A DNA stretch of 64,000 nt, from contig CP129472.1 of assembly GCA_030583725.1 (NCBI GenBank), positions 671,040-735,039 of the forward strand, given 5' to 3'. The first letter of the stretch is position 1. Each line of letters begins with the position of its first letter. The DNA comes from a bacterium (GTDB lineage: Bacteria > Patescibacteriota > Microgenomatia > UBA8517). This document shows positions 9,174 to 61,160 of this stretch, piece by piece. The notes below the pieces were generated by a model. That model did no database searches. It saw only the letters and a list, made by a program, of their open reading frames with translations, and was not told the DNA's origin. A program made the translations under genes and the position numbers.

Positions 9174-9180
9174 GTTGCTC

Positions 9181-9385: not shown

Positions 9386-9430
9386 ATATTAATGTTTTGC
9401 CCAAGGTGAAGCGCAAGATGTTTACAACCT

Positions 9431-9478: not shown

Positions 9479-9551
9479 GGGCCGTTGGCTCAGTTGGTAG
9501 AGCGCTTCATTTGCAATGAAGAGGTCGGGAGTTCGAATCTCCCACGGTCCA
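9479..9551 (+). tRNA. tRNA-Ala (anticodon TGC)
   Basis: Cloverleaf folded by hand. G3:U70 Ala identity pair (GGGCCGT/ACGGTCC), anticodon loop TTTGCAA, T-arm GGGAG-TTCGAAT-CTCCC. Confidence 0.85.
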
Positions 9552-10335: not shown

Positions 10336-10374
<39 letters not shown>

Positions 10375-33454: not shown

Positions 33455-34687
33455 TTAAAAACTTTTCAAAAGTAAAAAATCAGAGATGCTTAAATGCTTA
33501 ATTCCATCTGTGTTTCCACTTGCCATACTATCCATTGATACTACAAATTTAGGATAATTATCCTTGATGCTCAGTAAATTACCAAATTCTCTTGCCCTGA
33601 CTTTTTGAGAGGACAATAAATATGTCACTTGAACATAAACCCTTTTTCCTGAATGCTCTCCGACAAAATCAACTTCTGTTTTTCCTAATTGACCAACGTA
33701 AACAACATATCCTAATTCGATAAGTTTTGAATAGACCAAATTTTCAAGAATCTTGTTAATATCGGTTTGCTTAAAATTTGAGACAACATGTTTTAAACCT
33801 AAGTCTTCAAAATAATATTTTTCGCCAATCTCAAATATTTTTTTGCCTACAATATCGATTCGCTGTGTTTTATTTATAAAATAGCTTCCTGTTATAGACG
33901 ATAGATAATTTAATACAGTATTTGGCGATAGATTGATATTTTGAGATTTTAAAAAGTCGCTAATCTTTTTGGCAGATACAATAGAGCCTAAATTATCTGA
34001 CAAGTATTCAATTAATCTATTTAAGAAATTGATATTTCGAATTGCATACCTTTTAACAACATCTTTTAAGATTACAGTGTCATAAACACCCTTTAAGTAG
34101 CCATAAACTTGGTCGTCATTTAGCTCCAAATTAATTAGATAGGGGAGTCCGCCATATTTTATATATTTTTCCAAAGATGGGTTGTCATTTTCCAGCTTAT
34201 GAAACTTCAAAAATTCACTGTAAGACAAGGGATGGACTCGAAATTCAATAAATCTCCCTGAAAGTTTGCCTGCGATATCAGATGATAACATTTGGCTGTT
34301 ACTGCCTGTTAAAAATATGTCAAACTTTTTGCTTGAAAAAAAGCTTCTAATCGCTTTTTCAAAATTTTCTATTTCTTGTACCTCATCAATAAACAGATAA
34401 TTCATACCTATCTTTTTTAGAGGGGTAATATATTTAATAAGATCGTGATAATTTTTAATCTTGTCAAATTCATAGCTTTCTTTGTTTATATAGATGATAT
34501 TTGCCTTTTTGTTATTATTTTTAATAACATCAATTATTTCAAGCATTAAATAACTTTTCCCAACCCTTCTTTGGCCAGTAATAACTTTGACGATATTTTT
34601 ACCAATAAACGGCCTTATTAAGTCAATATACCTATCTCTAGTCATATATATTTTATTTGTATCTAAAACTTCTGTATTTTTTATCAT
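33455..34687 (-). CDS. AAA+ ATPase of the AAA_14/DUF4143 family
   Basis: Walker A ITGQRRVGKSYLM. Walker B LFIDEVQ. Characteristic DUF4143-type C-terminal half. Confidence 0.7.
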   Translation of the reverse strand: MIKNTEVLDTNKIYMTRDRYIDLIRPFIGKNIVKVITGQRRVGKSYLMLEIIDVIKNNNKKANIIYINKESYEFDKIKNYHDLIKYITPLKKIGMNYLFIDEVQEIENFEKAIRSFFSSKKFDIFLTGSNSQMLSSDIAGKLSGRFIEFRVHPLSYSEFLKFHKLENDNPSLEKYIKYGGLPYLINLELNDDQVYGYLKGVYDTVILKDVVKRYAIRNINFLNRLIEYLSDNLGSIVSAKKISDFLKSQNINLSPNTVLNYLSSITGSYFINKTQRIDIVGKKIFEIGEKYYFEDLGLKHVVSNFKQTDINKILENLVYSKLIELGYVVYVGQLGKTEVDFVGEHSGKRVYVQVTYLLSSQKVRAREFGNLLSIKDNYPKFVVSMDSMASGNTDGIKHLSISDFLLLKSF

Positions 34688-35806: not shown

Positions 35807-37018
35807 TTAAAGATATGTCCAAGGAATTACAGTAATACGATCACTTAATTTGTATGGTTTTTGATCCGTTGTAATAACATATCCTTTTTCTAGTTTGTTA
35901 TCATCTAAAAAAGTATTAAGACCAGATAAATCTTTTAATCCGATGTTTTTACCTGACTTAATTTCTATAGGAATAACTTTGTTATTAGTCTCAATGATTA
36001 AATCTACCTCAAGACCACTTTGTGTTCTCCAATAATATAATTTAAAATCACCTTTTAAATTTTGCCTTCTAAACATTTCTAAAATTACAAAATGTTCAAA
36101 TAATGAACCTCTGTCAATATTGGTTAAATTTGCTTCAAGTGGAATATCGGCAACTGCATTTTTTACACCTATGTCAAAGAAATAATATTTCGGCGTTTTG
36201 ACAATTCTTTTTCTTGCATTTTTAATAAATGGAGGTAATTGATGAATTATGAGAGTATCTAATAATATTTGATAATATTCTTTAACAGTAATTACTGATA
36301 TCCCTGTTTGGTTTGAAAGTGAAGTAAAATTAGGGTTACCTCCTGATTCATATGCTGCAAGTTGTAAAAATGAGCTAAATAAACCTAGATTTCTACTTAT
36401 GGCTTCAGCTCTAATTTCTTCTTCTAAGTAAATTGTTGAATAACTATGGAGTAATTGTTTTCTTTGAGGAGCGGGGATAGAAACAACCTCAGGAAGAGAA
36501 CCATAAACCATGCAGTCATTAAGGCTGAAATTATTATCTTTCGTAATAATATTTGGCAATCCTATTTCTGGAATATAATTTTTGATAGTTATGCCAAGCT
36601 CTCCCCACATAAGTGGGTCAAGATGTTGAAGGATTAACCTTCCCGGCAGAAGGTTTGCATGCGACCTTCTCAATTTTCGTGCAGAGGATCCAGTTAATAT
36701 AAATTTTTTATGATGTTCATCAATTAGATATTGGATACTATCAAAAAGTGCAGGAACTTTTTGAATCTCATCAATATAAATAATATCAGCAGTGTTAGCT
36801 AATTCATATTCCTGAATAAGTCTGGCTGGTTCCTTTTCGTAAATGATTCTTAAGGCCGGATTTTGGAGGAGGATTGAGTCGAAATGATGTTTTTTGGACA
36901 AGACTTCTCTTATTAATGTCGATTTTCCAACCTGACGGGGTCCAAGCAACAAAATAGATTTGTTGTTTTTTAGTGTCTGATTTAGATTCCTTGAAATATG
37001 CCTAGTATATAAATACAT
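35807..37018 (-). CDS. AAA+ ATPase of the AAA_14/DUF4143 family (second copy)
   Basis: Walker A LLGPRQVGKSTLI. Walker B IYIDEIQ. DUF4143-like C-terminal half. Confidence 0.7.
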   Translation of the reverse strand: MYLYTRHISRNLNQTLKNNKSILLLGPRQVGKSTLIREVLSKKHHFDSILLQNPALRIIYEKEPARLIQEYELANTADIIYIDEIQKVPALFDSIQYLIDEHHKKFILTGSSARKLRRSHANLLPGRLILQHLDPLMWGELGITIKNYIPEIGLPNIITKDNNFSLNDCMVYGSLPEVVSIPAPQRKQLLHSYSTIYLEEEIRAEAISRNLGLFSSFLQLAAYESGGNPNFTSLSNQTGISVITVKEYYQILLDTLIIHQLPPFIKNARKRIVKTPKYYFFDIGVKNAVADIPLEANLTNIDRGSLFEHFVILEMFRRQNLKGDFKLYYWRTQSGLEVDLIIETNNKVIPIEIKSGKNIGLKDLSGLNTFLDDNKLEKGYVITTDQKPYKLSDRITVIPWTYL

Positions 37019-37081: not shown

Positions 37082-40000
37082 CTAAATACCTTCTAATTCA
37101 ATAATCCACCAGTTAAATTCAACGTCTGTTTCTAGTGTATCAGAAAAACCAACCTCAAAGTAACCAGTATCTTTAGATTTTACATATAGCACTTTGTTTT
37201 GTGTAGAAGCTATTGGTGTTATATAGATTAGAGTATTAAGAGATACTTTGTTATTGTTTATTCTAACCTTCCTTGTGTTTGCAGGTAAAACTGCTTTTCC
37301 AGCTGTAGCATTTGAGTTTATTTCTCCTTCTACGATTGTTGCAGATTCTGTAGCAGTAGTATCAATATTATTTGCAACAATTATATTATTAATAGTTAGG
37401 TTACCTGCAACTTCAACATTACCCAAAAATTTAGTGTTTCCATCAATATCAACTGTTATTTTTCCTGCCATTATTTCAAGTGGGGTAGCTGCAAGAGATT
37501 GAATTTGTAGTGGCATATCAAGTGACTCTATTTTGTTGACAGTTAATAGGTCAGAGACAAAAAGTGATGATATTGCAGCTTGACCTGTAACATATAAGTT
37601 GTTTGCTTGTATACTTTCTGCAATCAAGTTAGTAAATGTACCATCTTCAAAAGAAGTATCAGTGCTCCAATTTTGACTTTCTGCCAATAAACTTTGGTTT
37701 GTTTCAACCTCACGCAATAATTCTTCAATTTCTGAAAGTCTGGTTGACTCAATATCATCTGCATATAATGTTCCTGAAATTGTTGCATCACCATTTACCG
37801 CTAATTGATTGGATTCAACAGTACCTTCAAAGTTTGCATTACCCAAAGAGTCAATTGATGCTACTTCTTGATTATCTTGTCCATTAATAACTAATCTTGC
37901 AGATTCAGAAGCTGAGAGATCAATGATTAAACTAGAATCTGCAATTGGGGAGATGATATTAGTTTTAATCTCTGGAGTAATTATGCCTGCAAAAATACCA
38001 ATCTGGGTAACTACTCTTTCTGTAACCACATCAATTAGTTCTCTGGTACTATATAGATAACGGTAAACTCGACTCTCCATGGACGTTGGATTTGGAGCGT
38101 AAGAATTATCAATAATTATAGTAATTGTGTCTTTTCCAGTGTTTGGTTCCCAGTTTTCAGTTGCTTTACCAATTGTACGGTCTCCAGCCATAGCTAGGGT
38201 GGCCAAACCCGGTGTTTGGGATGAGGTTAGTTCTGCTCCTGCAAAAATAGCAGGGGAGTTAGGGTCAATTTTGACCGGAATTCGACCAGCCAAACCCAAA
38301 AGCCTTCTATTTTCGGCTTCAATGCCTAAAGTTTTGCCTGCCTTGGTAGAAATAGCTCCAATTAGATTTGGGTCGTTAATTGATTTTGCCTTAGTAAGTA
38401 TAGGAACACTAAACTCATCCATTTTTCCGGTTATGGAAACTAAGTCTCCTGCACCAATTGAGTCATCATCAACTGTGTACCATTCTGCCAAATCAGCGCC
38501 AAAAACTACGGCATCAAGACGTAATTCCTGCTCTTCACCGGTGTAGTTATAAAGGCGGACGGTGTTGGTGTCAACTTGCTCAATTTTGTAGCCATCGTTG
38601 TAAGTAAGATATACATTTTCCACTTGAGGCTGATAGGAGTTGTTGGTGGTGGAGAGTATGATCCTATACTGTAAATACTCGTTCGGGGTAGAAGTTATTT
38701 TGGAAAAGTTATTATCAGTTAACAACTTTTCAGCTCTAACATTATCAATATATATAGTATTTGAGGATGCAATTAAGTTTGTAAACCTTAATTTTGTAAT
38801 AGCATCTCTTGCACCCGATTGTATGTCAGACAAATCCCAATATACCTTTTGCCAAACGTCAGCTGCGTCAATTTTTACAAACTCTTCCTGTTCCGTGCCG
38901 GCACTTTCTCCCATACCCACTTTTACAGTACTGCCAGTTTGCGAAGCTCTGATCCAAAAAGTGAGATAGTCGTAGCCGGAAAGATTAGCTGAAGTGATGG
39001 TGTCTTCAGCGTAACCACCATTGGTAGAAGAAGTAAGCTTGGTGAGATTACCGGCAGTTGCCTCATCTTCATCTTCAAACTGATCAACGTTTCTGGTGAC
39101 GTCACCATCGGCCACAGTCAAGTTAGTACCTGTCCACTCGGTATGGGTATTACCATCACTTAAATCAAGGTAGTTGGAGGTAGCAGTAAACGGTTTCCAA
39201 GCTTCCCAAGTTCCGTCAGTTGGGGACAGGGTAGAACCACTTCTGGTTTGGAAGGAAACTTTACTATATGGCACAATTGGAGTTTCCCACCTGATTGACT
39301 CAAGACTGGCTGAATTTGGGGTGCTTATTACTTTACTGTGATACAAACCATAGGTATGGTAGCCAGAGAGTGATGTGTTGGAAGCAGGGGAACTAGTTCC
39401 AGAAATCGATGACGAGTATTCAATTGCGATTCTGCCACTTCCCCCCGCTCCTCCGTGACTACCGGCGTAGCCACTACCAGCACTTCCACCCGTAGCGCTT
39501 ACCAGGGAAGATCCCAGTGTTAGGTTCTTGCCCATTATTTTGACGGAACCACCACTTGCCCCACCTCCACCTGTTCCGTGTGTAACACCGTTTGAACCCG
39601 CATTGCCGTTGGCCCTGATAGAACCGGTGACAGTAATATTTTCTGCGCTGACAGTTACTATTCCCCCAGCAGTACCGCCCGCACCACCACTCCCGGACCC
39701 CGTACCGTCTGAGTAACTTGCCCCACCTCCACCGCCAGAACCTAAATAAAGTTTTGCTAAGGTGGTGGAACCGTAGGTAGTACCAGCCAGTGTGCCGTAG
39801 GTACTTGTGTTACCAGCTGTGCCATATGATCCTCCTCCACCGCCCTGTCCTCCATTGTAAACGCCTCCGGCGCCACCGCCGATATTATTATTACCCGAAC
39901 CTATGGAATTCAAATTTGTACCAACACCATTTGAACCATTAGTCCTGTTTGGTGAAGGTCCGCCAGCTCCACCGGCGTAACCTAAACCGGTAGCGTGGAT

Positions 40001-43000
40001 ATTCCCGGCTACGGAAACTGTGCCAGTGGCTCTGAAAAACATCACACCGCCCTTGGCACCACTAAAAGCCGACGGAGTAAAGTTCATGGAGGCGTTGACG
40101 GTGACATTGTTGTAATTGGGAACTCTTTGGATCATAACTAATTGGTTGGTTCCACTGGTAGTGCCGATATTTGAATCACTACCGGCAATGTCACCGTAAT
40201 AATTAAGCTTTGAGGTTTTGAAGGTAATAATGTTTGATGAAACACTTAAAATTCGAAGAGTTTCAAAGTTTCCGACATTGTCATAGGCACTCACAATTCC
40301 TTTTAAGTTGATAAGTAATATCTCATCTCCGGCAGCAAGACAACCGCTGGCAGGGGTAGTGCTTAAAGTAGCAGTGGTTGCAGTAAGGGTAGTTACCGAG
40401 TAATTCACCGCATCGCCACCGTCGGCACAACTTCGGCCGGAAATCAGGCTGGTTGTATTTATATTTGTGTTACCTGAAACCGTAATATTCCCATCTCCAC
40501 CTGTGCCGGTATCGATAGCTGGAGTAATCTCAATATTTGTCAGTTTAGTTTGAGTGCGGGTGAGATTGCCTGTGGTAGTATATGAGTTACCATTGCCGGA
40601 ATTGTATAAGTCTGTAATTTCAGCAGCAGATAATTTTTTCTTCCAAAAACCTACTTCGTCTATTATGCCATCAAAAAAGAGTTCTTCGGTTGTATATCGA
40701 GCTCCAATTCTAAAGTTGGCTACAGTGTCAGATACAACACCAGTTTCTGAGGCTGAATCAACTGTGCCATTGTTGGCTTGGATACTGCAGGTGTCGGCTG
40801 TGGCATCATGCCAAGCGGTTAAAAAATACCAAGTCGCGGTGGAAGGAGCCCCGAGGTTATTAGCGGTGGCAGTACAAACGGTAGTGCCAGACGAATTGGC
40901 AAGAATAAACTCAAACCGGCTTGAGGTGTTGTTGTAATAGAGCTCATATTCTTTGACGGATGAACTCTCTGACTTGCTGACGATAGTTCGGTTAGCTCCT
41001 GTGCTTTCTAGGTTCACCCAAGCGCTGATGGTGAAATCAATGTCTCCTGTTGAAAGTGAGGTGTTGTCAGTAATTTCAAAAAATTCACTATTAGTGCTTT
41101 CCAAGTCTGCTCCATTATTAACTTTACCCGTACCTGAAGCGGTGGTGTTGTTGTCTGTCAGGTTGTTACTTCCATAACTATCATTACGAGTGGTAGCGCT
41201 AGATCCAGCACTGGCTTCATTCATTGTCCAGAAGCTGATTAAGTTATTAATAAGGGTACCTTGGGAATCAACCAAGAAAGTTTTTGCAGAAGCATCATCA
41301 AATTCGTTTTGAAGTGCATGTTTTACGGTTTGGGTGGAATTGGTGATAGTTTTCCAAAGACCTGTTATTTTATCCTTAATCCAAGCCGTTAAAGATAGGT
41401 CGTTGGTATTTTGGTTGTGGGCAATTTCAATATAGTTTTGATTAGCGACAGCGGCGTTGGTTTGGGAATACTTGGTCATATCCAGGGCAATACGATGCCA
41501 CGCACTATCAGATCCATATAAAAAGAGGTGGTCAGTAGAAGAACTTCCTGCTGAGTTATTATCATAAAAAATTGTTCCTTCAATAGTATTAGTAGTTGAA
41601 GAAATATTACTTGCTAGAGTTATGGCGCCATCGTTGTGAATTGTAAATTTAGTAGTTCCAGACGCACTTGCTGTAAAAATATCTCCACCTTTGTCATTAT
41701 TAACCATTAAGGCTGCCATTCCGTTATTAACTGTGTTGTTTACCCACCAGACACCATTGTCTAGGATGTTGGGACTATTAACTGCTGAAGCATCATCTGC
41801 AAATATAATAGTTGCAGTACCATCTGGGTTTGAAATTATTCTTCCATCTAAATATAAAACTCCATCAACTTCCAAATCTCCACTGATTAAAACGTCATCT
41901 GATGTAGTAAAACCATGTCCTGTTGTCGCTGTTCCAAATCTGGAGTAGGCAACAGGAGAGGTACTACCGACTTGTAATGATCCGTCAAGAGCAATTCTTG
42001 CACCAGTTGGATCAACTAATAAATATCCATTTGAATCTAATGTAAAACCAGAATAAACAGTTCCGTCAGTGTAAGTTAATCTTAATTGTTCACCTGATGT
42101 TGCCAGAGAATCAAGTTTTGCATCTGGTCCAGTTGTCCCAATACCGACGTTGCCGGCAGAGGTGTCAACATAGAGTTGGTTGGTGTTAACAGCAAAATCA
42201 CCGGTTGTGGCAAGGGAGACATTGAGGTTTTGACCTGCAGTTGGGGTCAGAGTTAATGACCCACCTGTTCCGGTGCCAGTTAAAGTCATTCCGCCTGTCG
42301 ATCCAATTGTACCTGACCAGTAGTTACTGGCGTCATATCCAAGTCTAAGTTGTTCCGTCGTTTCGTTTATGGTGAGTTTCGCCGTAGGCGATGTCGTCCC
42401 AATACCGACGTTGCCATTTTCTACAATCAGCCCATAATTATTAGTAGCTCCTGAAGCAGAGAAGTAACCACCGATATTAATTGATGTTGTTCCTGTGTTG
42501 GTGACATTTGAGTAAAGTCCATATGCAGTGTGTGATGCATTGGCGTTAGTTCCACTTCTTATAATGTCTAGTATTTTAGATGAACCACTTGCTCCACCTG
42601 CTGTAGAAGTAGAGGAGAGGTCAAATAATGTCCCTGTGGTTAATGAAGATGAAGCAAGAGAAAAAGCATCTGCTGCTGTGACTGAGTTAAAAGTAAATGC
42701 AGTGGTGTAACCTGCATGGGCTAGGGATAGATTTGCAGTTGGGGTTAGTAAGTCTGACCAAACACTACTTCCACCCCCACCACCTAAACTACTAAAATCA
42801 GTCACACAGTTTGTTTCTCCATCACCTGTACAAAACTTGGTAGCTTCAATTGTCCCATCTGAGACTGGTGTTCCAAAAGTAGAAATTCCAGAAGTCACAT
42901 ATAAATCAGCCCCAATAGTAGTTAATCCTGTTGAGTCGACAGAAAATTTTGAAGTTGGTGTTGCTCCTGATAGAAAATTAATAAAATAGTAACCAGTGGC

Positions 43001-44188
43001 ATTACTGGCAATTGTTCCTGCATATAGTGATCCAGAAGTTATGTTTGCATTTGTTGCATTTACAAAACCATTTGCACCACCACCTGGTGCTGCTCCTTCA
43101 AAAATTAGGTCAAGAGTTCCAGTGCCATCTGGATTGATGGTTATGATACCGTTTGATGTATTTGGAGTGGTTAAGGTTAGTGCTTGTCCTTCTACTGCAA
43201 AGGTGCCTGAAGTAGATTGTATTTTAGGTGATGCGGAAGCTAAAACAACTGTTCCTGTTGAATCAATGTATGGAATTGTAGATGTTCCTGTCCCCGCGGG
43301 AAAGCCTTGTAGCGTTTCTGAGTTAATAGCATATGCAACTGTTGCAATTTGTATTCTTGGTGTTGCTTCAGCGTCTGTTCCAACGGTTACACCTAACCAA
43401 ATGTCTGCATTTTCACTAAAAACACTTGAAGCAATTTCTGCTCCACAAGATGAACCAAGTAGGGTTGAAAATATACCATCTTGATCGGGTGTAATTGAAC
43501 AAGTTCCAGAATCCCAAAGTTCAGTTCCCCCGGTTGAAACTGCGTATAACTTAAAAACCATATTTGTTGCTACAGTTTCCGGGTTTCCTAGGTCATCAGT
43601 TAACCTTCCTTGAAAGGATAAAAATCTGTTTGGTCGTTCAAGAGCGGTAGGGAAGGCAAGTGACCTGTCTGTTGAGTAGAAAACCTGATCATATACCGCA
43701 TAACCTGAAAGTGATGAAAATAAAATTAAAATTGCGATATGAATATAACTTGCAAGTGGATATGAATGATACTTTCTGTACCAGTTTGGTCGGTTGAAAA
43801 ACAAACTTGTTAAAACATTCTTTAACTTAGGTTTATTAATAAACTTTGAAATTATTCTTTCTTGCCAAGACTTTGAAATTGTTCTAAAACTAGACACATT
43901 TTCAACACCACTCATAAAGTTACTACCAGTGAAGTTTGAGTAACTTCTAAGTGTTGAAAGACGCCTATTTAAAGTTGAAAGTGGGGTAGTAAGTCTTTGT
44001 GAGTTAATATACTCCCTAATTAAATTTGAGCTAACCTTGCGATCACCAGCCCAAGTTAAAAAATTAACAATATCTGATTTGTAGTATTTTAAAGATTTAA
44101 GGGAAACTCCGTGTAATTTTAAATATCTTAAAAAATTTTCAATAACTTTGGTTTTGTTTACAACTTCTGAATTATTCATTTTCCGCAA
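37082..44188 (-). CDS. giant (2368 aa) membrane-anchored surface protein with an N-terminal integrase-SAM-like segment, TM anchor, repeated NVGIGTT(S/G)P motifs, a LamG/ConA-like lectin domain and a Gly-rich region
   Basis: Residues ~15-90 (IENFLRYLKLHGVSLKSLKYYKSDIVNFLTWAG...LSTLRSYSNF) follow the tyrosine-recombinase N-terminal SAM-like pattern. TM YIHIAILILFSSLSGYAVY. NVGIGTTSPTAKL and NVGIGTTGPDAKL. FDGIIDEVGFWKKKLSAAEI (Laminin_G_3-type). Long GGxGG tracts. Confidence 0.8.
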   Translation of the reverse strand: MRKMNNSEVVNKTKVIENFLRYLKLHGVSLKSLKYYKSDIVNFLTWAGDRKVSSNLIREYINSQRLTTPLSTLNRRLSTLRSYSNFTGSNFMSGVENVSSFRTISKSWQERIISKFINKPKLKNVLTSLFFNRPNWYRKYHSYPLASYIHIAILILFSSLSGYAVYDQVFYSTDRSLAFPTALERPNRFLSFQGRLTDDLGNPETVATNMVFKLYAVSTGGTELWDSGTCSITPDQDGIFSTLLGSSCGAEIASSVFSENADIWLGVTVGTDAEATPRIQIATVAYAINSETLQGFPAGTGTSTIPYIDSTGTVVLASASPKIQSTSGTFAVEGQALTLTTPNTSNGIITINPDGTGTLDLIFEGAAPGGGANGFVNATNANITSGSLYAGTIASNATGYYFINFLSGATPTSKFSVDSTGLTTIGADLYVTSGISTFGTPVSDGTIEATKFCTGDGETNCVTDFSSLGGGGGSSVWSDLLTPTANLSLAHAGYTTAFTFNSVTAADAFSLASSSLTTGTLFDLSSTSTAGGASGSSKILDIIRSGTNANASHTAYGLYSNVTNTGTTSINIGGYFSASGATNNYGLIVENGNVGIGTTSPTAKLTINETTEQLRLGYDASNYWSGTIGSTGGMTLTGTGTGGSLTLTPTAGQNLNVSLATTGDFAVNTNQLYVDTSAGNVGIGTTGPDAKLDSLATSGEQLRLTYTDGTVYSGFTLDSNGYLLVDPTGARIALDGSLQVGSTSPVAYSRFGTATTGHGFTTSDDVLISGDLEVDGVLYLDGRIISNPDGTATIIFADDASAVNSPNILDNGVWWVNNTVNNGMAALMVNNDKGGDIFTASASGTTKFTIHNDGAITLASNISSTTNTIEGTIFYDNNSAGSSSTDHLFLYGSDSAWHRIALDMTKYSQTNAAVANQNYIEIAHNQNTNDLSLTAWIKDKITGLWKTITNSTQTVKHALQNEFDDASAKTFLVDSQGTLINNLISFWTMNEASAGSSATTRNDSYGSNNLTDNNTTASGTGKVNNGADLESTNSEFFEITDNTSLSTGDIDFTISAWVNLESTGANRTIVSKSESSSVKEYELYYNNTSSRFEFILANSSGTTVCTATANNLGAPSTATWYFLTAWHDATADTCSIQANNGTVDSASETGVVSDTVANFRIGARYTTEELFFDGIIDEVGFWKKKLSAAEITDLYNSGNGNSYTTTGNLTRTQTKLTNIEITPAIDTGTGGDGNITVSGNTNINTTSLISGRSCADGGDAVNYSVTTLTATTATLSTTPASGCLAAGDEILLINLKGIVSAYDNVGNFETLRILSVSSNIITFKTSKLNYYGDIAGSDSNIGTTSGTNQLVMIQRVPNYNNVTVNASMNFTPSAFSGAKGGVMFFRATGTVSVAGNIHATGLGYAGGAGGPSPNRTNGSNGVGTNLNSIGSGNNNIGGGAGGVYNGGQGGGGGSYGTAGNTSTYGTLAGTTYGSTTLAKLYLGSGGGGGASYSDGTGSGSGGAGGTAGGIVTVSAENITVTGSIRANGNAGSNGVTHGTGGGGASGGSVKIMGKNLTLGSSLVSATGGSAGSGYAGSHGGAGGSGRIAIEYSSSISGTSSPASNTSLSGYHTYGLYHSKVISTPNSASLESIRWETPIVPYSKVSFQTRSGSTLSPTDGTWEAWKPFTATSNYLDLSDGNTHTEWTGTNLTVADGDVTRNVDQFEDEDEATAGNLTKLTSSTNGGYAEDTITSANLSGYDYLTFWIRASQTGSTVKVGMGESAGTEQEEFVKIDAADVWQKVYWDLSDIQSGARDAITKLRFTNLIASSNTIYIDNVRAEKLLTDNNFSKITSTPNEYLQYRIILSTTNNSYQPQVENVYLTYNDGYKIEQVDTNTVRLYNYTGEEQELRLDAVVFGADLAEWYTVDDDSIGAGDLVSITGKMDEFSVPILTKAKSINDPNLIGAISTKAGKTLGIEAENRRLLGLAGRIPVKIDPNSPAIFAGAELTSSQTPGLATLAMAGDRTIGKATENWEPNTGKDTITIIIDNSYAPNPTSMESRVYRYLYSTRELIDVVTERVVTQIGIFAGIITPEIKTNIISPIADSSLIIDLSASESARLVINGQDNQEVASIDSLGNANFEGTVESNQLAVNGDATISGTLYADDIESTRLSEIEELLREVETNQSLLAESQNWSTDTSFEDGTFTNLIAESIQANNLYVTGQAAISSLFVSDLLTVNKIESLDMPLQIQSLAATPLEIMAGKITVDIDGNTKFLGNVEVAGNLTINNIIVANNIDTTATESATIVEGEINSNATAGKAVLPANTRKVRINNNKVSLNTLIYITPIASTQNKVLYVKSKDTGYFEVGFSDTLETDVEFNWWIIELEGI
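37097..37313. repeat. direct repeat copy B (3' end of the giant gene)
   Basis: See copy A. Confidence 0.85.
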
Positions 44189-44657: not shown

Positions 44658-45107
44658 ATGAATGAAGAATCTAACTTTTCCAGTAACAAGTCTAATTTTT
44701 TAATTGTAGTAGTCTTACTTGTTTTTTTACTTACTTTAGGGATTCTAGTTTATTATATTCGTTTCCAAACTACAATAGCTCCTCGTGCGGATAATTATAA
44801 TTCTATTCAAAGTGTTTCAATTGTTAACTCATATGTCTTTGCATCTCCAGTTAGAGCTAAAGCCTCTGGTGACTTAATACGGGTTACAACATTTGCTTTA
44901 GATGATAATGGGTCAGGTTTATATGACAAAAGGGTTGAACTGAAGTCTGATAATTCAGGCCTTGCGATAAAAGAGATACAAAGCTTAACAGATGAAACAG
45001 GTAAAGCCCTATTTGATTTAAGCTCTGATATTATTGGGACATATACTGTTGATGTTTATGTTGATGGTGTTAAATTGCCACAAAGTTTACGGGTAGTTTT
45101 TGACTAA
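44658..45107 (+). CDS. hypothetical membrane-anchored protein (149 aa)
   Basis: N-terminal TM LIVVVLLVFLLTLGILVYYI, then a beta-rich region. Confidence 0.45.
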   Translation: MNEESNFSSNKSNFLIVVVLLVFLLTLGILVYYIRFQTTIAPRADNYNSIQSVSIVNSYVFASPVRAKASGDLIRVTTFALDDNGSGLYDKRVELKSDNSGLAIKEIQSLTDETGKALFDLSSDIIGTYTVDVYVDGVKLPQSLRVVFD

Positions 45108-45110: not shown

Positions 45111-46010
45111 ATGTTTACCACTGCTCCAGAAATAATAAATGATGCAACAATAGGGCAGGTTGTTACCCAACCAACAGCTACACCAACATCATCACCAAGT
45201 ACTACAACTGATTCAACTCCCACCGCTACACCTGTTTACACTTTCCCTTCATTTAAAAGGTATAGTGATAATTCGTTAATAATCTATGGGTTTGGACCAA
45301 TTAAATCTAAGGTGTTTTTAAAAGGTTTTGGTGTTTCTGAAGAAACAGTTTCTGATGAGACTGGTTTATTTGTATTTAATAGAATATACAGTCTGACTTT
45401 GACTTATCCAGAGCTTTGTGTACAAGCAACTGATGATTTGGGTAGGGTTACGCAACCTACTTGTATCCCAAGCCTACCAGGGAATAGTTCGATACCCTTA
45501 GAGGTGGGTCCGATATTGTTGTCTCCTACCGTTTCTTTGAGTAAAAATAGGGTAGTAGAGGGCCAAGACGCAATTATTACTGGTAAAACTACCCCAAACA
45601 CATTAGTTAATCTTTTTGTCTCCAAAAGTAATGACTTGTCAAAGTTAAGTTTTGTGTCTGAGGTCAATGCATACAGTTTGCCAGTTGTGAACACTACGTC
45701 GGATGATGAAGGTAAATTTGAAATAAGCTTGCCAACTGGGACAAAAGCAGAATACAGGATGTTTGCTTCTACTAAATATGGTGAAAATCTATCTGCAAAA
45801 AGTAATACACTAACATTTGCAGTAATAACTGATATTAAGTCCCTGTTGGAGAGGTTTGTTAATTACTTAATAACAAACAAAATAATAGTTGTTTTAATTG
45901 TAGAGGCAATCCTCATCGTTTTATTACTTATTCTGGCTTTAAAATCGAATAGGAGAGTCCAGAAGCGTCATAATGAAAAGGATTATCTAAAGTTTGTGGA
46001 GTCTTTTTAA
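45111..46010 (+). CDS. hypothetical surface protein with Thr/Pro-rich N-terminal region and C-terminal TM anchor
   Basis: TQPTATPTSSPSTTTDSTPTATP. C-terminal IIVVLIVEAILIVLLLILAL + KSNRRVQKRH. Confidence 0.45.
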   Translation: MFTTAPEIINDATIGQVVTQPTATPTSSPSTTTDSTPTATPVYTFPSFKRYSDNSLIIYGFGPIKSKVFLKGFGVSEETVSDETGLFVFNRIYSLTLTYPELCVQATDDLGRVTQPTCIPSLPGNSSIPLEVGPILLSPTVSLSKNRVVEGQDAIITGKTTPNTLVNLFVSKSNDLSKLSFVSEVNAYSLPVVNTTSDDEGKFEISLPTGTKAEYRMFASTKYGENLSAKSNTLTFAVITDIKSLLERFVNYLITNKIIVVLIVEAILIVLLLILALKSNRRVQKRHNEKDYLKFVESF

Positions 46011-46348
46011 GAAGCGTTGGAGTATCTACTAGAGTATTCCTTTTTAATTCTTTGAGACAAAAAAATCTTCATTAGTGATTGGTATGGAACATCCTGTTCG
46101 TTTGCAAGCATTCTTAAATCTTCTAACATCATTTGGGGAAGCCTTAATGTTACCTTTGCAGTTGATGGTTTGAGCTTTGAAAAATCAAGTTTGACTGGTT
46201 TAAAAATGTGAAGATAATCAGTTACACTGTGATTTGCCCAAAAGTCTCTCTCTTCATCCTCGTTTTTAAAAAGGGGGATTGTTGGTAATATTTTTTTACT
46301 ACGTAGTAGCAAACTCTGTTTACCCTGATTCTTTTTTTGTATCTTCAT
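46007..46348 (-). CDS. BrnA-like (CopG/RHH-type) antitoxin family protein, apparently without an adjacent BrnT toxin. The track ORF extends to 46408; likely start MKIQKK.
   Basis: KNEDEERDFWANHSVTDYL...KVTLRLPQMMLEDLRMLANEQDVPYQSLMKIFLSQRIKKE matches the BrnA pattern (EEExxFWxxHDxxDY...RLP...L...A...GVPYQSLIK). Confidence 0.5.
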   Translation of the reverse strand: MKIQKKNQGKQSLLLRSKKILPTIPLFKNEDEERDFWANHSVTDYLHIFKPVKLDFSKLKPSTAKVTLRLPQMMLEDLRMLANEQDVPYQSLMKIFLSQRIKKEYSSRYSNAS

Positions 46349-46434
46349 ATATTTTTCTTTCTTTGTTGTATCTAATATTTTATTGAAATGATAAAGTAAC
46401 TTCATCATTTTTGTACGATATTGTCAACTTGAAG

Positions 46435-47436
46435 TTATGATTTAGGTAATTTGTCCTTGAATTTATTTTTTAACATTTCTACCTCGTGTATTTCTTCTTC
46501 TAGTCTTTTTTCTAATTCCTCCTGTTTGTTTTTTGACTTCCTGCTCATTAGGTAGGAGAGTAGTATTATAATTATGATTGAGAAAATAATCATAACAATA
46601 ACTGTTACGGGTATGACCCAAACATAGTTGGTTGCAGTCAAAGTCTTGCCTTGCTCTCCATAGCTTGCCACTAAGTCAATTTTGTATCTTCCAAACATCC
46701 AAGTCTGACCCAATTCCACTTCATAATTTCTTTTGGCACTTGGAAATATATTTTTATCTTCCAATGTGACCCTTTCAGTTTCTTGTCCCATCCAATTAGT
46801 CAATGTTACTTGTCCTTTAGGGTTTATATGGTAGCCACCTTTGTTGCTAATCTCAAAATAAACAGGAATTTTGCCAAACTCAGAAAATATTGGAGATTTA
46901 AATATGTCTACAAATGCAGATTCTGTAATTGGGCCATTAATTCTTGTGTTGACTAAACCTACAATTCTTGGTGAGACCAACGATGCTGCTTCTGAATTTG
47001 AAGTTTGGGTTAGTTGTCCAGTCTGCTCGAAAATAATTGCACTATATCTTCCTCCTGGAAGGGTCTCTTGGGGTACGTTGATTCTAAAATTAACCCTTAA
47101 TACCTCACCTGAAGGTATTACTGCTTTAGTAAAAGGTAGTTCGATCCAATCATTAATTTGATCTTCAAGTAAAATGGGGGACCCATCTGTACCAGTAACT
47201 ATGAAGTCAACAGCCTTAATGTTTCCCGATATTGGTTGATCTGTTTCATTAAAAAACTTAATTTGTAAGTTTTCAGACTTACCTGGGTCAATAGCTACTG
47301 TTTGTCTAGAGGGGGCAACGGTCAAGGGTATTTTTGTCTGAGCGTTAGCTGTACTAAATACAAAGTACATAGAACAAAGAAAAGTAATTAGTGATAGAGC
47401 AGTTATAATCTTTAGATTGAATCTCATTTTTTTCAT
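46435..47436 (-). CDS. DUF916/DUF3324-like cell-surface protein (signal peptide, C-terminal TM + charged coiled-coil tail)
   Basis: Signal peptide. TVAPSRQTVAIDPGKSENLQIKFFNETDQPISG... C-terminal TM VIPVTVIVMIIFSIIIIILLSYL. Pattern-level family call. Confidence 0.45.
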   Translation of the reverse strand: MKKMRFNLKIITALSLITFLCSMYFVFSTANAQTKIPLTVAPSRQTVAIDPGKSENLQIKFFNETDQPISGNIKAVDFIVTGTDGSPILLEDQINDWIELPFTKAVIPSGEVLRVNFRINVPQETLPGGRYSAIIFEQTGQLTQTSNSEAASLVSPRIVGLVNTRINGPITESAFVDIFKSPIFSEFGKIPVYFEISNKGGYHINPKGQVTLTNWMGQETERVTLEDKNIFPSAKRNYEVELGQTWMFGRYKIDLVASYGEQGKTLTATNYVWVIPVTVIVMIIFSIIIIILLSYLMSRKSKNKQEELEKRLEEEIHEVEMLKNKFKDKLPKS

Positions 47437-47441
47437 ATTTT

Positions 47442-48938
47442 TTAAAATGTTGGCACAGCTGTATATTGTATTTTATTATAGTAATATCCAGCAGGCTGTG
47501 TACCTGTAATATCAATCCTGTAACAAACGTAAACACTTGACCCATCTACCGGCCCTCCATTTTCCATTATGTGTGCAGTTGAAGCACTTCTCGATTCTAG
47601 TGCTTCCTGATCTGCAAATTGTTTGGCATTAAAAGTATCACCACCAGCACCATCCCAGTCAAATATTGCGTCGGTTCCTGAGGAATTTTGTAAAGAATAT
47701 CCTAGTCCTGGGTATGAAGTAGGGTCAGAACCCCAGTCCCTATATGTTTGATGTGTACAACCCGTACCGTCACAAACAGTGTCTTGTATACAGTCATCTG
47801 CCTCTCCGGCAGCTGCGCCCGTACAAACTTTACCGTCTTTGCCCATTTGATCATTTTGTTCAACATAGACTTTATAACCAGAACCAGCATTTGTTGAAAC
47901 TGTTATTTGATGGTTGGTGTTGTGTGTAGCTGCTAAATATGTAGGAGACAAAGTTCCCCAACCAACAGAAGTTGCTGTTGTATCGGGTGAACTTGCTGTC
48001 CTAGTTATTCCACAATAGGAACCAGAGTCGGCAGTGATACCAGTAATTGTCAAGGAGAGCGACTCATCAACTGTCGCAGAAACAAGGATTCCCTCGACTG
48101 GGGCAACTGCAACATCTGAACTATCCAGTGTTGCATCAGTACCATCTCTTGACTTTATGTTTATTTGATATGAATCAGCTTGACCTTGGGTATGCGTGGT
48201 TAACGGTGCAGGGTTAATTATTCCTGGAGTTGAGTCAATTGTTACGGTAATTGCACTTAATGCTGCACAAGCTGAAGTTGCACGATTAATTAATATTCTA
48301 TGATCATTTGTAGCATCGCCTGCAGTGATTGAGGCAACTGTCCAGTTTACATCAGTGCATCCTGTAACTGCTATATCGGTTGTGGCGATGGTGCTGATAT
48401 CAAATCCATTGGCTGTTGTGCTTGCACCAGTATCAGGTATACCATCATTTGTTTTACCTGTTGAGTCAACTGCTGGGATTGTAATATAAAGATCTCCATT
48501 TGCAGGTATTTCTGTTACTGTAGTAAAAGCTAGAGTCAAACTACCGGATTGAGATGCAACTACATATGCAGTTGATTCAAGTGTTGTTGTTAGGGCCGAA
48601 GTTAAATTAAAAGTTGTGCTATCTATTATGTTTGCAACACTATAATTAACATCACCTAAACAACCTGTTTCTTCACTTCCTGCAAAACAAACAGTATCTC
48701 CAGGGAATAAGTGATTAGTGTTATTATCAGCGTTTCCGGAAGCATCAATTGTCACAGTTGATGATCCTGAAGTGCCTGTTGCAACACCAGCTTTATATGA
48801 AAACCTTGCATTAGATAATGTTGCAGAGGCTGATGTAAAGTTTGCTGAGTGTGTTTTGGTTCTTGGTGAAATTAAAATATAACCAAGGCTAAAACCTAAC
48901 AATAAAACAACAAAAATTATTAATTTCTTCTTCTCCAT
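47442..48938 (-). CDS. secreted Thr/Ser-rich surface protein with a divergent WxL-like C-terminal motif
   Basis: Signal peptide. C-terminal ...GTQPAGYYYNKIQYTAVPTF resembles the WxL C-terminal motif (AGTYxGxLTWTLxxAP) with W replaced by Y. Paralogous to the C-terminus of the 49818..50540 product. Confidence 0.45.
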   Translation of the reverse strand: MEKKKLIIFVVLLLGFSLGYILISPRTKTHSANFTSASATLSNARFSYKAGVATGTSGSSTVTIDASGNADNNTNHLFPGDTVCFAGSEETGCLGDVNYSVANIIDSTTFNLTSALTTTLESTAYVVASQSGSLTLAFTTVTEIPANGDLYITIPAVDSTGKTNDGIPDTGASTTANGFDISTIATTDIAVTGCTDVNWTVASITAGDATNDHRILINRATSACAALSAITVTIDSTPGIINPAPLTTHTQGQADSYQINIKSRDGTDATLDSSDVAVAPVEGILVSATVDESLSLTITGITADSGSYCGITRTASSPDTTATSVGWGTLSPTYLAATHNTNHQITVSTNAGSGYKVYVEQNDQMGKDGKVCTGAAAGEADDCIQDTVCDGTGCTHQTYRDWGSDPTSYPGLGYSLQNSSGTDAIFDWDGAGGDTFNAKQFADQEALESRSASTAHIMENGGPVDGSSVYVCYRIDITGTQPAGYYYNKIQYTAVPTF

Positions 48939-49816
48939 ACTTTAAATATGACTTTATATCTAATCAAAGTCAATAGTAACAGAATTATAATTGCATATAT
49001 GAATGGAAAGACATAAGTTGTAGTTTCTGACTTATATATTTTTGCCTCATCATCAATTGAAAACTCTAATTTGGTTATCATTTTTCCAATAATAAGTTTT
49101 TGTTTAGGTGTACAGTCAACTAAAGACTCTCCATCAAGACAATTTATACTTCTTGAATATCCAGAAAGAATATTTTGGGGGGCAAGCTTTAACATTTCCT
49201 CATCATTTATTATTATTTTTCCATTTGGTTTCCAGAAAGAGTTGCCATTGTTCATAATTAAAACTTCGAAACTAAATGGTATGAGTGGGTCAGAAACAAG
49301 AGGTGCCTTAAACTTAACAACCTCTGCAGATTTTTTTGGGTTACCATCTTTTGATATGGTAACTAAGATGTTTGATCCTATTTCTGTCTTGTATAAACTT
49401 AAGTTATCATCAGTAATACTATTTGGTTCTTGGGATTCAAAAATTAAGGTTATAAAATGATCAGTTTCGGGTGTTGTTTCTGGAGGAGACAAACTTATAT
49501 TAAATATCTTTTGTTCTTGGTTTTTGATTGTAAATTGATCAGGATTATATCTAATCCAATCGGGTGCAGGAATATCTGTAGTTGTTACATTTCCCATTAT
49601 GTCTGATGGAATAAAATAAATTAGCTTAGGTTTCAATATTATGTCAGAACCATTATTAGTTAGTGCATATGTTTGTTTAACCTCTTTACCTGGCTGAATA
49701 GTCACTTCAAGTAATGGTGGGGTAATTGAAAGTGAAATATTACCTTGGGCAATTGTCTTTTGGTCAAACACAAAGAACAAACTAAAAAAGAAAAATGTAA
49801 ATACTATATATTTCAT
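48920..49816 (-). CDS. DUF916/DUF3324-like cell-surface protein (second copy)
   Basis: Signal peptide. SLSITPPLLEVTIQPGKEVKQTYALTNNG. C-terminal TM FIYAIIILLLLTLI + RYKVIFKVWRRRN. Confidence 0.45.
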   Translation of the reverse strand: MKYIVFTFFFFSLFFVFDQKTIAQGNISLSITPPLLEVTIQPGKEVKQTYALTNNGSDIILKPKLIYFIPSDIMGNVTTTDIPAPDWIRYNPDQFTIKNQEQKIFNISLSPPETTPETDHFITLIFESQEPNSITDDNLSLYKTEIGSNILVTISKDGNPKKSAEVVKFKAPLVSDPLIPFSFEVLIMNNGNSFWKPNGKIIINDEEMLKLAPQNILSGYSRSINCLDGESLVDCTPKQKLIIGKMITKLEFSIDDEAKIYKSETTTYVFPFIYAIIILLLLTLIRYKVIFKVWRRRN

Positions 49817-49817
49817 A

Positions 49818-50540
49818 TTAATATCCTGGTATAGCTGTAAATGTAATTATATTCTGATATGTTCCTGCGGGTTGAACCCCGCTGACATTAACTTTATAAG
49901 TAATTGTAGCTGTTCTCTCACGACCGACATTTATTGAACTCATTATTATGGCTGGATTTTCTGCACTGTTTCTATCAGAAAACTGTCTGAAGTAGTCTGA
50001 ATTTACAAAATCGGCTGGTATGTCATCACCACTCATATTAAACCCAAAGCCATACCTTGAGTTAGACGTCCAAGTACCCGCAGACGTTTCACTACAAGTT
50101 GAGTCACAAAGAGTGTCTATGATAGTGTTTGAACCATCTGATGTTTTTAAAGGATTATTTTCAGAAGCTTTGACTGTATATCCTCCTGCCCCTCCAGCTG
50201 AAACAGTTAAGATTGATGTATCTGTTGATGGTGTGCCTGGTGTTAGAACACCAAAATTAATTTGTATATCACTCACGGAAAAAGAAAAAGGAATTATTGA
50301 GTTTATGTATTGAAAACCAGATTTGACTCTAAAGCCTGTTGATGAAAAAAGTCCAGGTGCAGTTTGACCTATTGTTGTGTTTAAATAATAGTTGTCAGAA
50401 GAGGGTATTCCTGCCCCTGAATTGAAATTTGGAAAAATTATTCGATAATTTTCTGACTGTACTCTTTCTTGTGCGTAAACGAGACTCAAATTAGAAATTA
50501 TCAGAAAAAAAAATATGCAACAAAACATAAACTTTTTCAT
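49818..50540 (-). CDS. small secreted WxL-like surface protein (240 aa)
   Basis: Signal peptide. C-terminal GVQPAGTYQNIITFTAIPGY (WxL-like with F in place of W). Internal SAGGAGGYTVKA analogous to the first WxL motif. Confidence 0.45.
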   Translation of the reverse strand: MKKFMFCCIFFFLIISNLSLVYAQERVQSENYRIIFPNFNSGAGIPSSDNYYLNTTIGQTAPGLFSSTGFRVKSGFQYINSIIPFSFSVSDIQINFGVLTPGTPSTDTSILTVSAGGAGGYTVKASENNPLKTSDGSNTIIDTLCDSTCSETSAGTWTSNSRYGFGFNMSGDDIPADFVNSDYFRQFSDRNSAENPAIIMSSINVGRERTATITYKVNVSGVQPAGTYQNIITFTAIPGY

Positions 50541-50893
50541 TTTTTCTTTGTTTCTAAATTTTGAATTTCGTGGTCTTTAGCTTCAATTTCGTTTTCCAAA
50601 ACTTTTTCTTCTATCTTTAGTTCTTTGATTATTTCTTCAGCCTTTTCTTTTTTAGTTGTAAGTATTCTTAATGTTGAAACGAGATATATGATCACTGTCA
50701 TAGAGATCAGGAAGTAAACTATAAATATGAATGAGTAGTGGAAGATGTTAACCCAAGCTATAACTAAAATTGTGGTAACTACGATTGTGGCAATATCAAT
50801 ATACTTCCTAACTCTTAAGTAAACTTCATTTTTCTTAAATAGAAAATGTGAAGCAGTGTATAGAATGATAATAAAGGCAAGTATGTAGAGCAT
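50537..50893 (-). CDS. small membrane protein with C-terminal coiled-coil (first gene of the surface-protein operon)
   Basis: Three TM segments, then EEIIKELKIEEKVLENEIEAKDHEIQNLE. Confidence 0.4.
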   Translation of the reverse strand: MLYILAFIIILYTASHFLFKKNEVYLRVRKYIDIATIVVTTILVIAWVNIFHYSFIFIVYFLISMTVIIYLVSTLRILTTKKEKAEEIIKELKIEEKVLENEIEAKDHEIQNLETKKK

Positions 50894-60425: not shown

Positions 60426-61160
60426 ATGGTCGATTTAAAAATACAAAATGCTATTCATAGGAATAAAATGCAAAAACTTTTGATTGCAATTGCAGATAAT
60501 CCATTTCTCTCAAAGAGAATTTATTTTAGAGGAGGAACATGCGCTGCGATGCTTGGATATTTAGATAGATTTTCTGTTGATTTAGATTTTGATCCTTATA
60601 AGTCAATTGCCACATCTGATATGTTGAATTTTCGAAAGGAACTGTTGCCAATTTTTGATAAATTGGATTTTAAAATTGACAGAGAAAATTACGAATCACT
60701 GTTTTTTACTCTAAAATACAAGGCAAAAGTTAATTTTAGGAATACTCTGATGCTTAGCGTATTTAATGAAGTTATAAAAAATAATGACTATCAAAAGGTT
60801 AAAATTACAGAAATTGATAGATTTATGACTTGTCAGACAGTTGAATCAATGTTTGCAAATAAACTCGTTAGTGTAATGGATAGATACAATAGGCATAAAA
60901 AAATTGCAGGTAGGGATATTTATGATGTTAAATATTTTTTTGAACAAGGGTATGAGTTTAAGAATGAGATAATTAAGGAAAGAACAGGGATGGAAACAAA
61001 AGATTATATTAAAAAATTAATTGTGTTTATTGAAAAAGAAGTAACAGAAGATTTGATAAATAGGGATTTAAATATGCTTTTGGCACCCGATACATTTAGT
61101 AAAATTAGAAAAACATTAAAACAAGATACATTACTTTTTTTAAAGAATTTAATAAATTAA
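60426..61160 (+). CDS. abiEii: AbiEii/AbiGii-family nucleotidyltransferase toxin (DUF1814)
   Basis: IYFRGGTCAAMLGYLDRFSVDLDFD matches the family signature (GGTAL...RFSEDIDF). Confidence 0.65.
   Translation: MVDLKIQNAIHRNKMQKLLIAIADNPFLSKRIYFRGGTCAAMLGYLDRFSVDLDFDPYKSIATSDMLNFRKELLPIFDKLDFKIDRENYESLFFTLKYKAKVNFRNTLMLSVFNEVIKNNDYQKVKITEIDRFMTCQTVESMFANKLVSVMDRYNRHKKIAGRDIYDVKYFFEQGYEFKNEIIKERTGMETKDYIKKLIVFIEKEVTEDLINRDLNMLLAPDTFSKIRKTLKQDTLLFLKNLIN

Follow-up and report, generated by a model that had tools for sequence, protein, structure and literature searches.

What kind of surface structure is encoded by a tightly packed set of five minus-strand genes in the genome of a Microgenomatia bacterium? 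The genes occupy positions 46,435 to 50,893 of a 64,000-nucleotide (nt) stretch of contig CP129472.1 (assembly GCA_030583725.1, positions 671,040 to 735,039), which was analyzed as a whole and is referred to here as the window. A sequence-only reading had proposed that they specify a small membrane protein, two divergent WxL-like surface proteins, and two DUF916-like partners, in a pairing that mirrors the cell-surface complex (csc) clusters of Lactobacillales and Enterococcus. The evidence gathered here favors another answer, namely, that the cluster is most likely a divergent Microgenomatia version of the usher-less Pam-type pilus operon, which is specific to the candidate phyla radiation and would yield a thin surface filament assembled by donor-strand exchange. 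The membrane-anchored partner proteins are homologs of WxLIP (DUF916).

Pam pili are the subject of a 2026 preprint by Troman et al., from which the NCBIfam Pam models used below also derive (bioRxiv 10.64898/2026.03.03.709456). Two filaments of Candidatus Mycosynbacter amalyticus (Saccharimonadia) were solved by cryo-electron microscopy (cryo-EM), and their subunits polymerize by donation of a linker strand, which in PamA and PamB is the linker between the two domains. The Pam operon encodes a tip protein made up of the C-terminal domain (CTD) only (PamT, 25.6 kDa), the pilin PamA (55.3 kDa), PapD/FimC-like chaperones with an unusual C-terminal transmembrane (TM) helix (PamC and PamD), and a TM-anchored two-domain terminator of 32.8 kDa (PamR); a tail fibre-like protein is central to its neighborhood. 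Remote PamA homologs in Microgenomatia, one of them from Roizmanbacteria, are already reported in the same preprint, as is conservation of the operon in this group; the type of system is itself not new (bioRxiv 10.64898/2026.03.03.709456).

Organization and distribution of the cluster

The five open reading frames (ORFs) are located exactly where they had been read from the sequence, all on the minus strand (Table 1). From the first gene to the last, they are spaced by -4, +1, -19, and +5 nt, and therefore form one operon, i.e., a single transcription unit. A promoter scan counted as many promoter-like sites as expected for shuffled sequence, and a terminator scan yielded none that was convincing. 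Hydropathy profiles placed signal-peptide-like N termini on the 240-, 298-, 498-, and 333-amino-acid (aa) proteins, and, at the C terminus of the 298- and 333-aa proteins, a single hydrophobic helix that leads into a basic tail, as had been noted for the DUF916-like members. The signal peptide formerly assigned to all five products was thus found on four of them. The 118-aa protein, which has 2 to 3 hydrophobic segments and a charged C-terminal coiled coil in the same profiles, is predicted to be a small polytopic membrane protein without a cleavable signal peptide. Coiled-coil-tailed small membrane proteins stand at the equivalent position in the related loci L069 (211 aa), L071 (240 aa), and L072 (111 aa), with sequence similarity to the 118-aa protein being undetectable except in close relatives.

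The 240- and 498-aa proteins share a homologous CTD of ~170 aa (29% identity over 173 aa; E = 1e-12) and end in QPAGTYQNIITFTAIPGY and QPAGYYYNKIQYTAVPTF, respectively. The 298- and 333-aa proteins are paralogs of each other (25% identity over 258 aa; E = 5e-8) and are referred to below as chaperone-like. Scanning the window with the family hidden Markov models (HMMs) retrieved two genes each for chaperone-like and CTD-bearing proteins, with no further copies, and a single gene of another family, R, the sixth conserved member of the cluster, which lies outside the five-gene interval.

Homologs of each protein, hundreds in number, are all unannotated, and the 498-aa protein is identical to an NCBI hypothetical protein (locus tag QY322_04130). 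More than 814 homologs were found for this protein, and an exhaustive HMM search gathered 8,800 representative relatives of the chaperone-like family at the 50%-identity level. Homologs with a named source derive nearly all from the Microgenomates group, Woesebacteria, Daviesbacteria, Roizmanbacteria, or Patescibacteria; the window therefore stems from a bacterium of the candidate phyla radiation (CPR), not from a Firmicute. A scan of metagenomes with a hand-made degenerate DNA pattern, built on the chaperone motif H[IV]xPxG-x8-G-x11-NxFP, delivered 124 related loci with 129 CTD-bearing ORFs, of which 65 diverse ones were tested against models. The canonical order T-C-P-C-R (T, small subunit; C, chaperone-like protein; P, pilin) recurs in the metagenome loci, and an opposite-strand Big_1 protein and a giant protein follow it in related loci. 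The survey of related genomes that the sequence-only reading had suggested thus recovered the same cluster, with its gene order kept across more than 100 CPR loci. Given that every family comprises hundreds to thousands of homologs in the same gene order, the arrangement is far beyond chance.

Individual loci depart from this layout. In the Roizmanbacteria locus L069, the operon is split in two (2151-4579 and 8001-11619), with one part coding for the membrane protein, small subunit, and first chaperone-like protein and the other for the pilin, chaperone 2, and R; the interrupting genes are comEA, comEC, and those of a metallo-β-lactamase and a PaaX-like regulator. Genes for ComEA, ComEC, and LeuRS directly adjoin the cluster in the window, L071, and L072.

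Sub-threshold matches of the subunit proteins to Pam models

The 240-aa protein consists of a signal peptide, a conserved N-terminal segment of ~55 aa, and the CTD, and lacks a donor-strand linker. It matches the NCBIfam model CPR_pilus_PamT over its full length (residues 7 to 240 on positions 8 to 241 of 241; E = 1.2e-14) as well as CPR_Pam_pilin_C (E = 3e-10), the latter being the sole NCBIfam match of the 498-aa protein; no curated NCBIfam family other than these two was matched by the subunits. The CTD profiles of the two subunits align with an hhalign probability of 99.3%, and it is over the CTD only that the 240-aa protein aligns to the pilin. The same models were recognized well outside the window: among the 65 diverse CTD proteins encoded beside chaperone-like genes, 48 matched Pam_pilin_C (best E = 1.3e-11) and 18 matched PamT, with no other NCBIfam family being matched in this set.

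The AlphaFold2 (AF2) model of the 498-aa protein (pLDDT 80) displays a helix at residues 2 to 23 corresponding to the signal peptide, a confident β-sandwich at ~33 to 280, and a β-rich CTD of lower confidence at ~293 to 498, which ends in YTAVPTF. All ten cysteines of the protein occupy invariant alignment columns. Structure searches with the whole pilin model were uninformative, as cohesins, Gram-positive pilins, and phage tail proteins, all of them generic, made up the best matches. When the PDB was searched by sequence, using the two subunits or pilin profiles as queries, no meaningful match was obtained; the copies searched evidently lacked PamA/PamB (25PZ and 25QA).

Relationship of the CTD to the WxL domain

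Neither the 240- nor the 498-aa protein matched the Pfam WxL model (PF13731) at E ≤ 10, and at E ≤ 0.1 this model matched 0 of 50 pilin-family members and 0 of the 65 diverse CTD proteins; control WxL proteins score 1e-35 to 1e-70. Comparison of the CTD profiles with verified WxL domains gave hhalign probabilities of at most 1.5% (9% for the full-length profile of the 240-aa family), and no trial was significant, be it with narrow, domain-trimmed, or 90-sequence profiles or in local, global, or low-mact mode. The scores (15 to 18) compare with 10 to 14 for reversed nulls and 14 to 21 for unrelated β-domains. The description of the two subunits as WxL-like thus found no support in these searches.

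A fainter resemblance persists. The replacement of the canonical Trp by Phe or Tyr had been correctly observed, and Tyr or Phe stands at both candidate WxL positions of the CTD. Conserved elements follow one another in the same order in the two domains, i.e., FG; V.V.D.RG..GW.L in WxL versus L.VSAGGAGGY.V in the CTD; an M.[AS] element (vm.A versus IMsS); and, last, L.VPG....Y.T.LTW.L.D.P versus Y.VNVS.QPAG.Y.N.I.[YF]TA.P. The CTD HMM scored WxL domains higher in forward than in reversed orientation in 78% of cases (median of 1.6 versus 0.0 bits), its best match reached 13.1 bits over most of the domain, and the weak alignments were co-linear (r = 0.91). This residual resemblance is suggestive and stays below the normal standard for homology. 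The subunit CTD may be a Trp-less WxL domain, an option that we take seriously while leaning slightly against it.

Membrane-anchored proteins are homologs of WxLIP

The 298-aa protein comprises a signal peptide, two Ig-like domains, a TM segment at residues 264 to 294, and a basic tail; the corresponding place in L069, L071, and L072 is taken by its orthologs. The AF2 model of its 333-aa paralog (pLDDT 87) contains β-sandwich domains at residues 38 to 139 and 157 to 274 and a long TM/charged cytoplasmic helix; a C-terminal TM segment is present in all full-length chaperone-like relatives (117/117). Foldseek comparison of this model with the PDB returned WxLIP of Enterococcus faecium on top (9i1y_A and 9i25_C; E ~2e-11), followed by the chaperone-usher chaperones CfaA, DraB, CsuC, YadV, Caf1M, and FimC (E = 1e-9 to 1e-7), and also RbmA. 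The Foldseek probability was 1.00 for WxLIP and for CfaA, DraB, CsuC, Caf1M, and FimC. The two E. faecium entries, crystal or cryo-EM structures of WxLIP by itself and in complex with a long WxL protein, became public in January 2026.

Sequence profiles extend this structural result. The 333-aa protein scores 18.2 bits on PF06030 (DUF916/WxLIP_PGBD), under the cut-off of 27.3 bits; the model is weakly matched by 27 of 47 close family members and matched by 55 of 85 divergent relatives, with the best of them (P0476) reaching 40.4 bits, above the cut-off. For profile comparison, 68 genuine Firmicutes WxL clusters were collected by means of the published WxLIP motif and verified with Pfam. Against these WxLIPs, a narrow profile of the chaperone family reached hhalign probabilities of 87 to 92%, and a broad one 99.0% (E = 5e-18; 229 columns spanning both domains; reversed nulls, 6%). 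The aligned region extends across domain 2 as far as WxLIP column 286; taken on its own, domain 2 of the narrow profile reaches only 3.3%. In the whole PDB, the best sequence matches of the broad profile are EfmWxLIP1 chains (E = 2.4e-5), and no chaperone-usher chaperone is among the matches listed. PF11797 (DUF3324) is absent from the listed Pfam matches of the scanned chaperone-like members, and NCBIfam returned no Pam-named model for the family, only weak choice-of-anchor T matches. One relative (P0460) is named a DUF916 protein by NCBI; it was deposited as 'DUF916 domain-containing protein' of a Pseudomonadales bacterium, on a 12-kb contig of a metagenome-assembled genome, and matches the chaperone-like family at E = 2e-48. 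As the family is distributed in the CPR, the contig is probably of CPR origin and was mis-binned.

The TM-anchored 298- and 333-aa proteins are thus WxLIP (DUF916) homologs, as the sequence-only reading had it. Of the three Pfam models named there for verification, PF06030 responded, through the relatives, PF13731 did not, and PF11797 was not among the listed matches. The link between Pam-type chaperones and the WxLIP superfamily appears to be unreported: the Pam preprint makes no mention of WxL (bioRxiv 10.64898/2026.03.03.709456), and the literature searched contains no connection of WxL to CPR bacteria or to chaperone-usher assembly.

This homology also speaks for a rival reading, in which the locus specifies a WxL/csc-type surface complex, in which divergent WxL proteins would be held non-covalently on the cell wall with DUF916-like stabilizers, as a static adhesion or carbohydrate-binding complex and not as a filament. 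The composition of the cluster, equal to that of the commonest WxL clusters (one small WxL protein, one large, and one WxLIP), points the same way, as do the order of the CTD elements and the faint co-linear forward-over-reversed HMM signal; yet such a complex is unlikely here, since Pfam WxL is silent on both sets of subunits, the CTD behaves as unrelated β-domains do in profile-profile comparison, the Trp residues of both defining Trp-x-Leu motifs are missing, and the Pam pilin models are matched instead. Furthermore, the host is a CPR bacterium, and the homologous system of M. amalyticus was seen as a filament by cryo-EM. With Pam models matched in a CPR host, a Pam pilus therefore fits better than a Firmicute WxL complex. 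What survives of the proposed parallel with csc clusters is the layout (a small CTD-only protein, a large CTD-terminal one, and a TM-anchored partner), without the WxL assignment. The two interpretations are perhaps not mutually exclusive, as WxL clusters could use strand complementation too.

A conserved linker as putative donor strand

The region P280-E292, which connects the N-terminal domain (NTD) and the CTD of the pilin, is nearly invariant in the family alignment, and residues 284 to 289 have pLDDT values below 50 in the monomer AF2 model. A nine-residue motif (ILVSATVDE in the window) stands at a fixed position of the linker in 50 of 64 pilins and is found in 0 of 19 small subunits, 1 of 153 chaperone-like proteins, and 0 of 577 unrelated ORFs. 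It occurs again just after the signal peptide in 15 of 74 R proteins (e.g., ITVSASIGE). By likeness to the inter-domain linker of PamA/PamB, residues 281 to 292 are the candidate donated strand, and the distribution of the motif fits what would be predicted for a donor strand that is common to pilin and terminator and missing from the tip.

These patterns bear on a second alternative, i.e., that the genes encode unrelated, co-transcribed secreted Ig-like adhesins or S-layer-associated proteins, the TM-anchored ones being adhesins themselves, with no chaperone-subunit relation between them. Ig-like β-sandwich folds are indeed generic, as are the best structural matches of the pilin model, and host binding by the second domain has been proposed in the WxLIP literature. 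However, gene order and pairing are strictly kept over very wide sequence divergence, the CTD is common to both subunit types and the linker motif restricted to the larger one, and the fold matches to pilus chaperones and to partner-bound WxLIP are specific and of high probability, so that we regard this explanation as very improbable.

For the Pam-type pilus, the following course of assembly can be proposed. Sec export would come first, and the membrane-tethered chaperone-like proteins would then lend a β-strand to each subunit, thereby capping its incomplete CTD. The 240-aa subunit, which would accept a strand only, is expected to sit at the tip because it has no linker strand to donate. The 498-aa pilins would be added serially, each one filling the CTD groove of the subunit before it with its own linker strand (~281-292, ILVSATVDE). 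The R protein would end growth and tie the fiber to the membrane via its linker-like N-terminal strand and its TM helix. Reaching a host cell and attaching to it is the probable function of the filament, by analogy with the role suggested in Ca. Mycosynbacter amalyticus.

Several points weigh against the assignment to Pam pili. The 240-aa protein scores 54.4 bits on the PamT model, whose curated cut-off is 240, and the two subunits score 40.4 and 16.4 bits on Pam_pilin_C, with a cut-off of 55. The operon holds one large pilin, compared with three (PamA/B/E) in the Pam system. The equation of the 298- and 333-aa proteins with PamC/PamD, and of R with PamR, rests on architecture, size, and position, and the motif shared by linker and R proteins was defined only after inspection of both families. 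The R copy of the window has no signal peptide, which is unfitting for an extracellular anchor, and its gene is inverted. Finally, we know of no filament observed in any Microgenomatia bacterium.

R protein and neighboring genes

The R protein of the window is predicted to combine two β-sandwich domains with a C-terminal TM helix that leads into a basic tail, and shows two weak transthyretin-like matches; its size is close to that of PamR (32.7 versus 32.8 kDa). In most loci, the R homolog lies directly downstream of chaperone 2 in the same orientation. An N-terminal hydrophobic segment is present in 53 of 74 members and a C-terminal TM segment in 59 of 74, and by comparison with the M. amalyticus system, R is probably a PamR-like terminator or anchor. 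The signal peptide is missing from R in L125, L127, and L072 also and present in most other lineages. The window protein starts with MFTTAPEIINDATIGQ..., followed by a Thr/Pro-rich linker.

Table 1. Coordinates of the cluster and adjoining genes in the window
Feature	Position	Strand	Size	Basis and remarks
Small membrane protein, first operon gene	50537..50893	-	118 aa	ORF and hydropathy; overlaps next gene by 4 nt
PamT-like tip/initiator subunit	49818..50540	-	240 aa, 26.0 kDa	NCBIfam PamT match; CTD homologous to pilin CTD
Chaperone-like protein 1, PamC/D-like, WxLIP/DUF916 superfamily	48920..49816	-	298 aa	Paralog of the 333-aa protein; family HMM E = 1.6e-61
PamA-like major pilin	47442..48938	-	498 aa, 51.5 kDa	AF2 model; Pam_pilin_C matches in relatives
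Putative donor strand, between NTD and CTD of the pilin	48063..48098	-	Residues 281-292	Conserved linker, ...VEGILVSATVDE...
Chaperone-like protein 2, PamC/D-like, WxLIP/DUF916 superfamily	46435..47436	-	333 aa	AF2, Foldseek, hhalign
R protein, sixth conserved member	45111..46010	+	299 aa, 32.7 kDa	Family HMM E = 6e-83
Membrane-anchored Big_1 (Ig-like) protein	44658..45107	+	149 aa	Pfam Big_1, E = 1.2e-8
Giant surface protein	37082..44188	-	2,368 aa	Pfam: N-terminal Phage_int_SAM_1-like segment, Laminin_G_3; hydrophobic segment

In 52 loci, and likewise in L069, L071, and L072, a Big_1 gene adjoins the cluster; its product is a possible member of the system. In the window, the Big_1 and R ORFs are in frame, parted by one TAA stop and one codon. 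A single read-through gene was rejected as a general explanation, the two ORFs being out of frame in the close relative L072.

Counterparts of the giant surface protein, which measure 2,540 to 2,673 aa in relatives, are encoded beside the cluster in L069, L071, and L072 and in 21 metagenome loci. The L069 counterpart carries Peptidase_S74, an intramolecular chaperone domain of tail fibers. The giant protein is probably the 'tail fibre-like protein' of the Pam neighborhood, which does not imply that it is part of the pilus. For a surface protein of this size, its integrase-like N terminus, of a cytoplasmic type, is odd.

A CopG/BrnA-type antitoxin gene (46007-46408, minus strand; PF12441, E = 1.8e-25) separates the last operon gene from R. 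It is an orphan, no partner toxin being apparent next to it. With a homolog detected in only 2 of the 124 related loci, it is probably a lineage-specific insertion. A lone MazE-like antitoxin has been reported near the Pam operon of M. amalyticus (bioRxiv 10.64898/2026.03.03.709456).

Farther away, two paralogous genes for AAA_14 and DUF4143 ATPases (33455-34687 and 35807-37018, both on the minus strand) flank a 274-aa ORF without a family match. G+C content is lowest in the window at 32 to 38 kb (0.28 to 0.32 versus ~0.36 to 0.40 elsewhere), and this region may be a mobile or recently acquired segment. On the other side of the cluster, an AbiEii-type nucleotidyltransferase toxin of a type IV toxin-antitoxin system is encoded at 60426-61160 (plus strand), preceded by a 165-aa ORF without a family match that could be its AbiEi partner.

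Significance and comparison with known systems

The locus provides names and a testable mechanism for genes labeled "hypothetical" in the sources examined, and suggests that Microgenomatia, whose mode of host contact is obscure, carry Pam-type filaments as a standard surface organelle. The homology of Pam-type chaperones and WxLIP joins two literatures without mutual citation, and since 2006 it has been unclear what WxL/csc clusters do in enterococci, listeriae, and lactobacilli. Should the subunits also prove related, the donor-strand mechanism proven for Pam by cryo-EM would provide a concrete, if hypothetical, account of the way in which WxL proteins are retained and exposed. A wider reading, which we advance tentatively and rate a little below even chances, is that a single ancient usher-less assembly system of monoderms has branched into the Pam pili of CPR bacteria and the Firmicute WxL/csc clusters, with a membrane-tethered WxLIP-type chaperone capping an incomplete Ig-like CTD through strand complementation. 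The chaperone half of this reading is demonstrated and the subunit half only hinted at. If it is true, the Pam CTD would have its Firmicute equivalent in the WxL domain (with GW.L corresponding to GY.V and TW.L..P to [YF]TA.P), and WxL proteins might be assembled, or even polymerized, by donor-strand exchange.

Among known systems, the chaperone-usher pili of Gram-negative bacteria (e.g., CFA/I class 5, archaic Csu, and Fim/Pap) resemble the cluster in the two-Ig fold of the chaperone-like proteins (Foldseek E ~1e-9; TM-score versus target ~0.55) and in an incomplete Ig-like subunit domain, a separate donor strand, and a tip without donor strand, all three of which are predictions here. They differ in that the present cluster involves neither an usher nor an outer membrane, its chaperones are membrane-anchored, its subunits have two domains, and the donor strand is an internal linker instead of an N-terminal extension. 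No usher was matched among the scanned proteins of the cluster and its neighborhood, and PapD is absent among the most frequent Pfam matches of the chaperone-like family, the similarity being structural only. With usher, outer membrane, and sequence match all absent, a chaperone-usher system proper was rejected.

The WxL/csc clusters of Lactobacillales, Enterococcus, Listeria, and Bacillus, whose WxLIPs combine DUF916 (PF06030) and DUF3324 (PF11797) with a TM segment, share with the locus the WxLIP homology over both Ig-like domains together with the TM anchor, and the set of a small CTD-only protein, a large CTD-terminal protein, and a TM-anchored partner. Both the AF2 models of the WxLIP paper and the title of entry 9i25 indicate that WxLIP binds WxL directly by strand insertion. 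In contrast, the subunits described here match no WxL model and lack both Trp residues, each cluster has two WxLIP-like genes instead of one, the WxLIP signature NQIDKxxxYFDLK is absent, and the phylum is another; moreover, WxL clusters have been described as peptidoglycan-bound complexes and not as filaments.

Set against the Pam pilus, the locus shows remote sequence similarity, with all scores here under the NCBIfam cut-offs, a first operon gene without counterpart, for the small polytopic membrane protein with a coiled coil, an R gene that in the window lineage is inverted and devoid of a signal peptide, and no ATP synthase genes among those examined around the cluster. The likenesses concern the host, which is a CPR bacterium in both cases, and the following components: a CTD-only tip protein of PamT size (26.0 versus 25.6 kDa), a pilin predicted by AF2 to consist of an NTD β-sandwich, linker, and CTD (51.5 kDa versus 55.3 kDa for PamA), two chaperone-like proteins with signal peptide and C-terminal TM helix and no usher, a TM-anchored two-domain protein of ~33 kDa at the end of the operon, and a giant tail-fibre-like neighbor.

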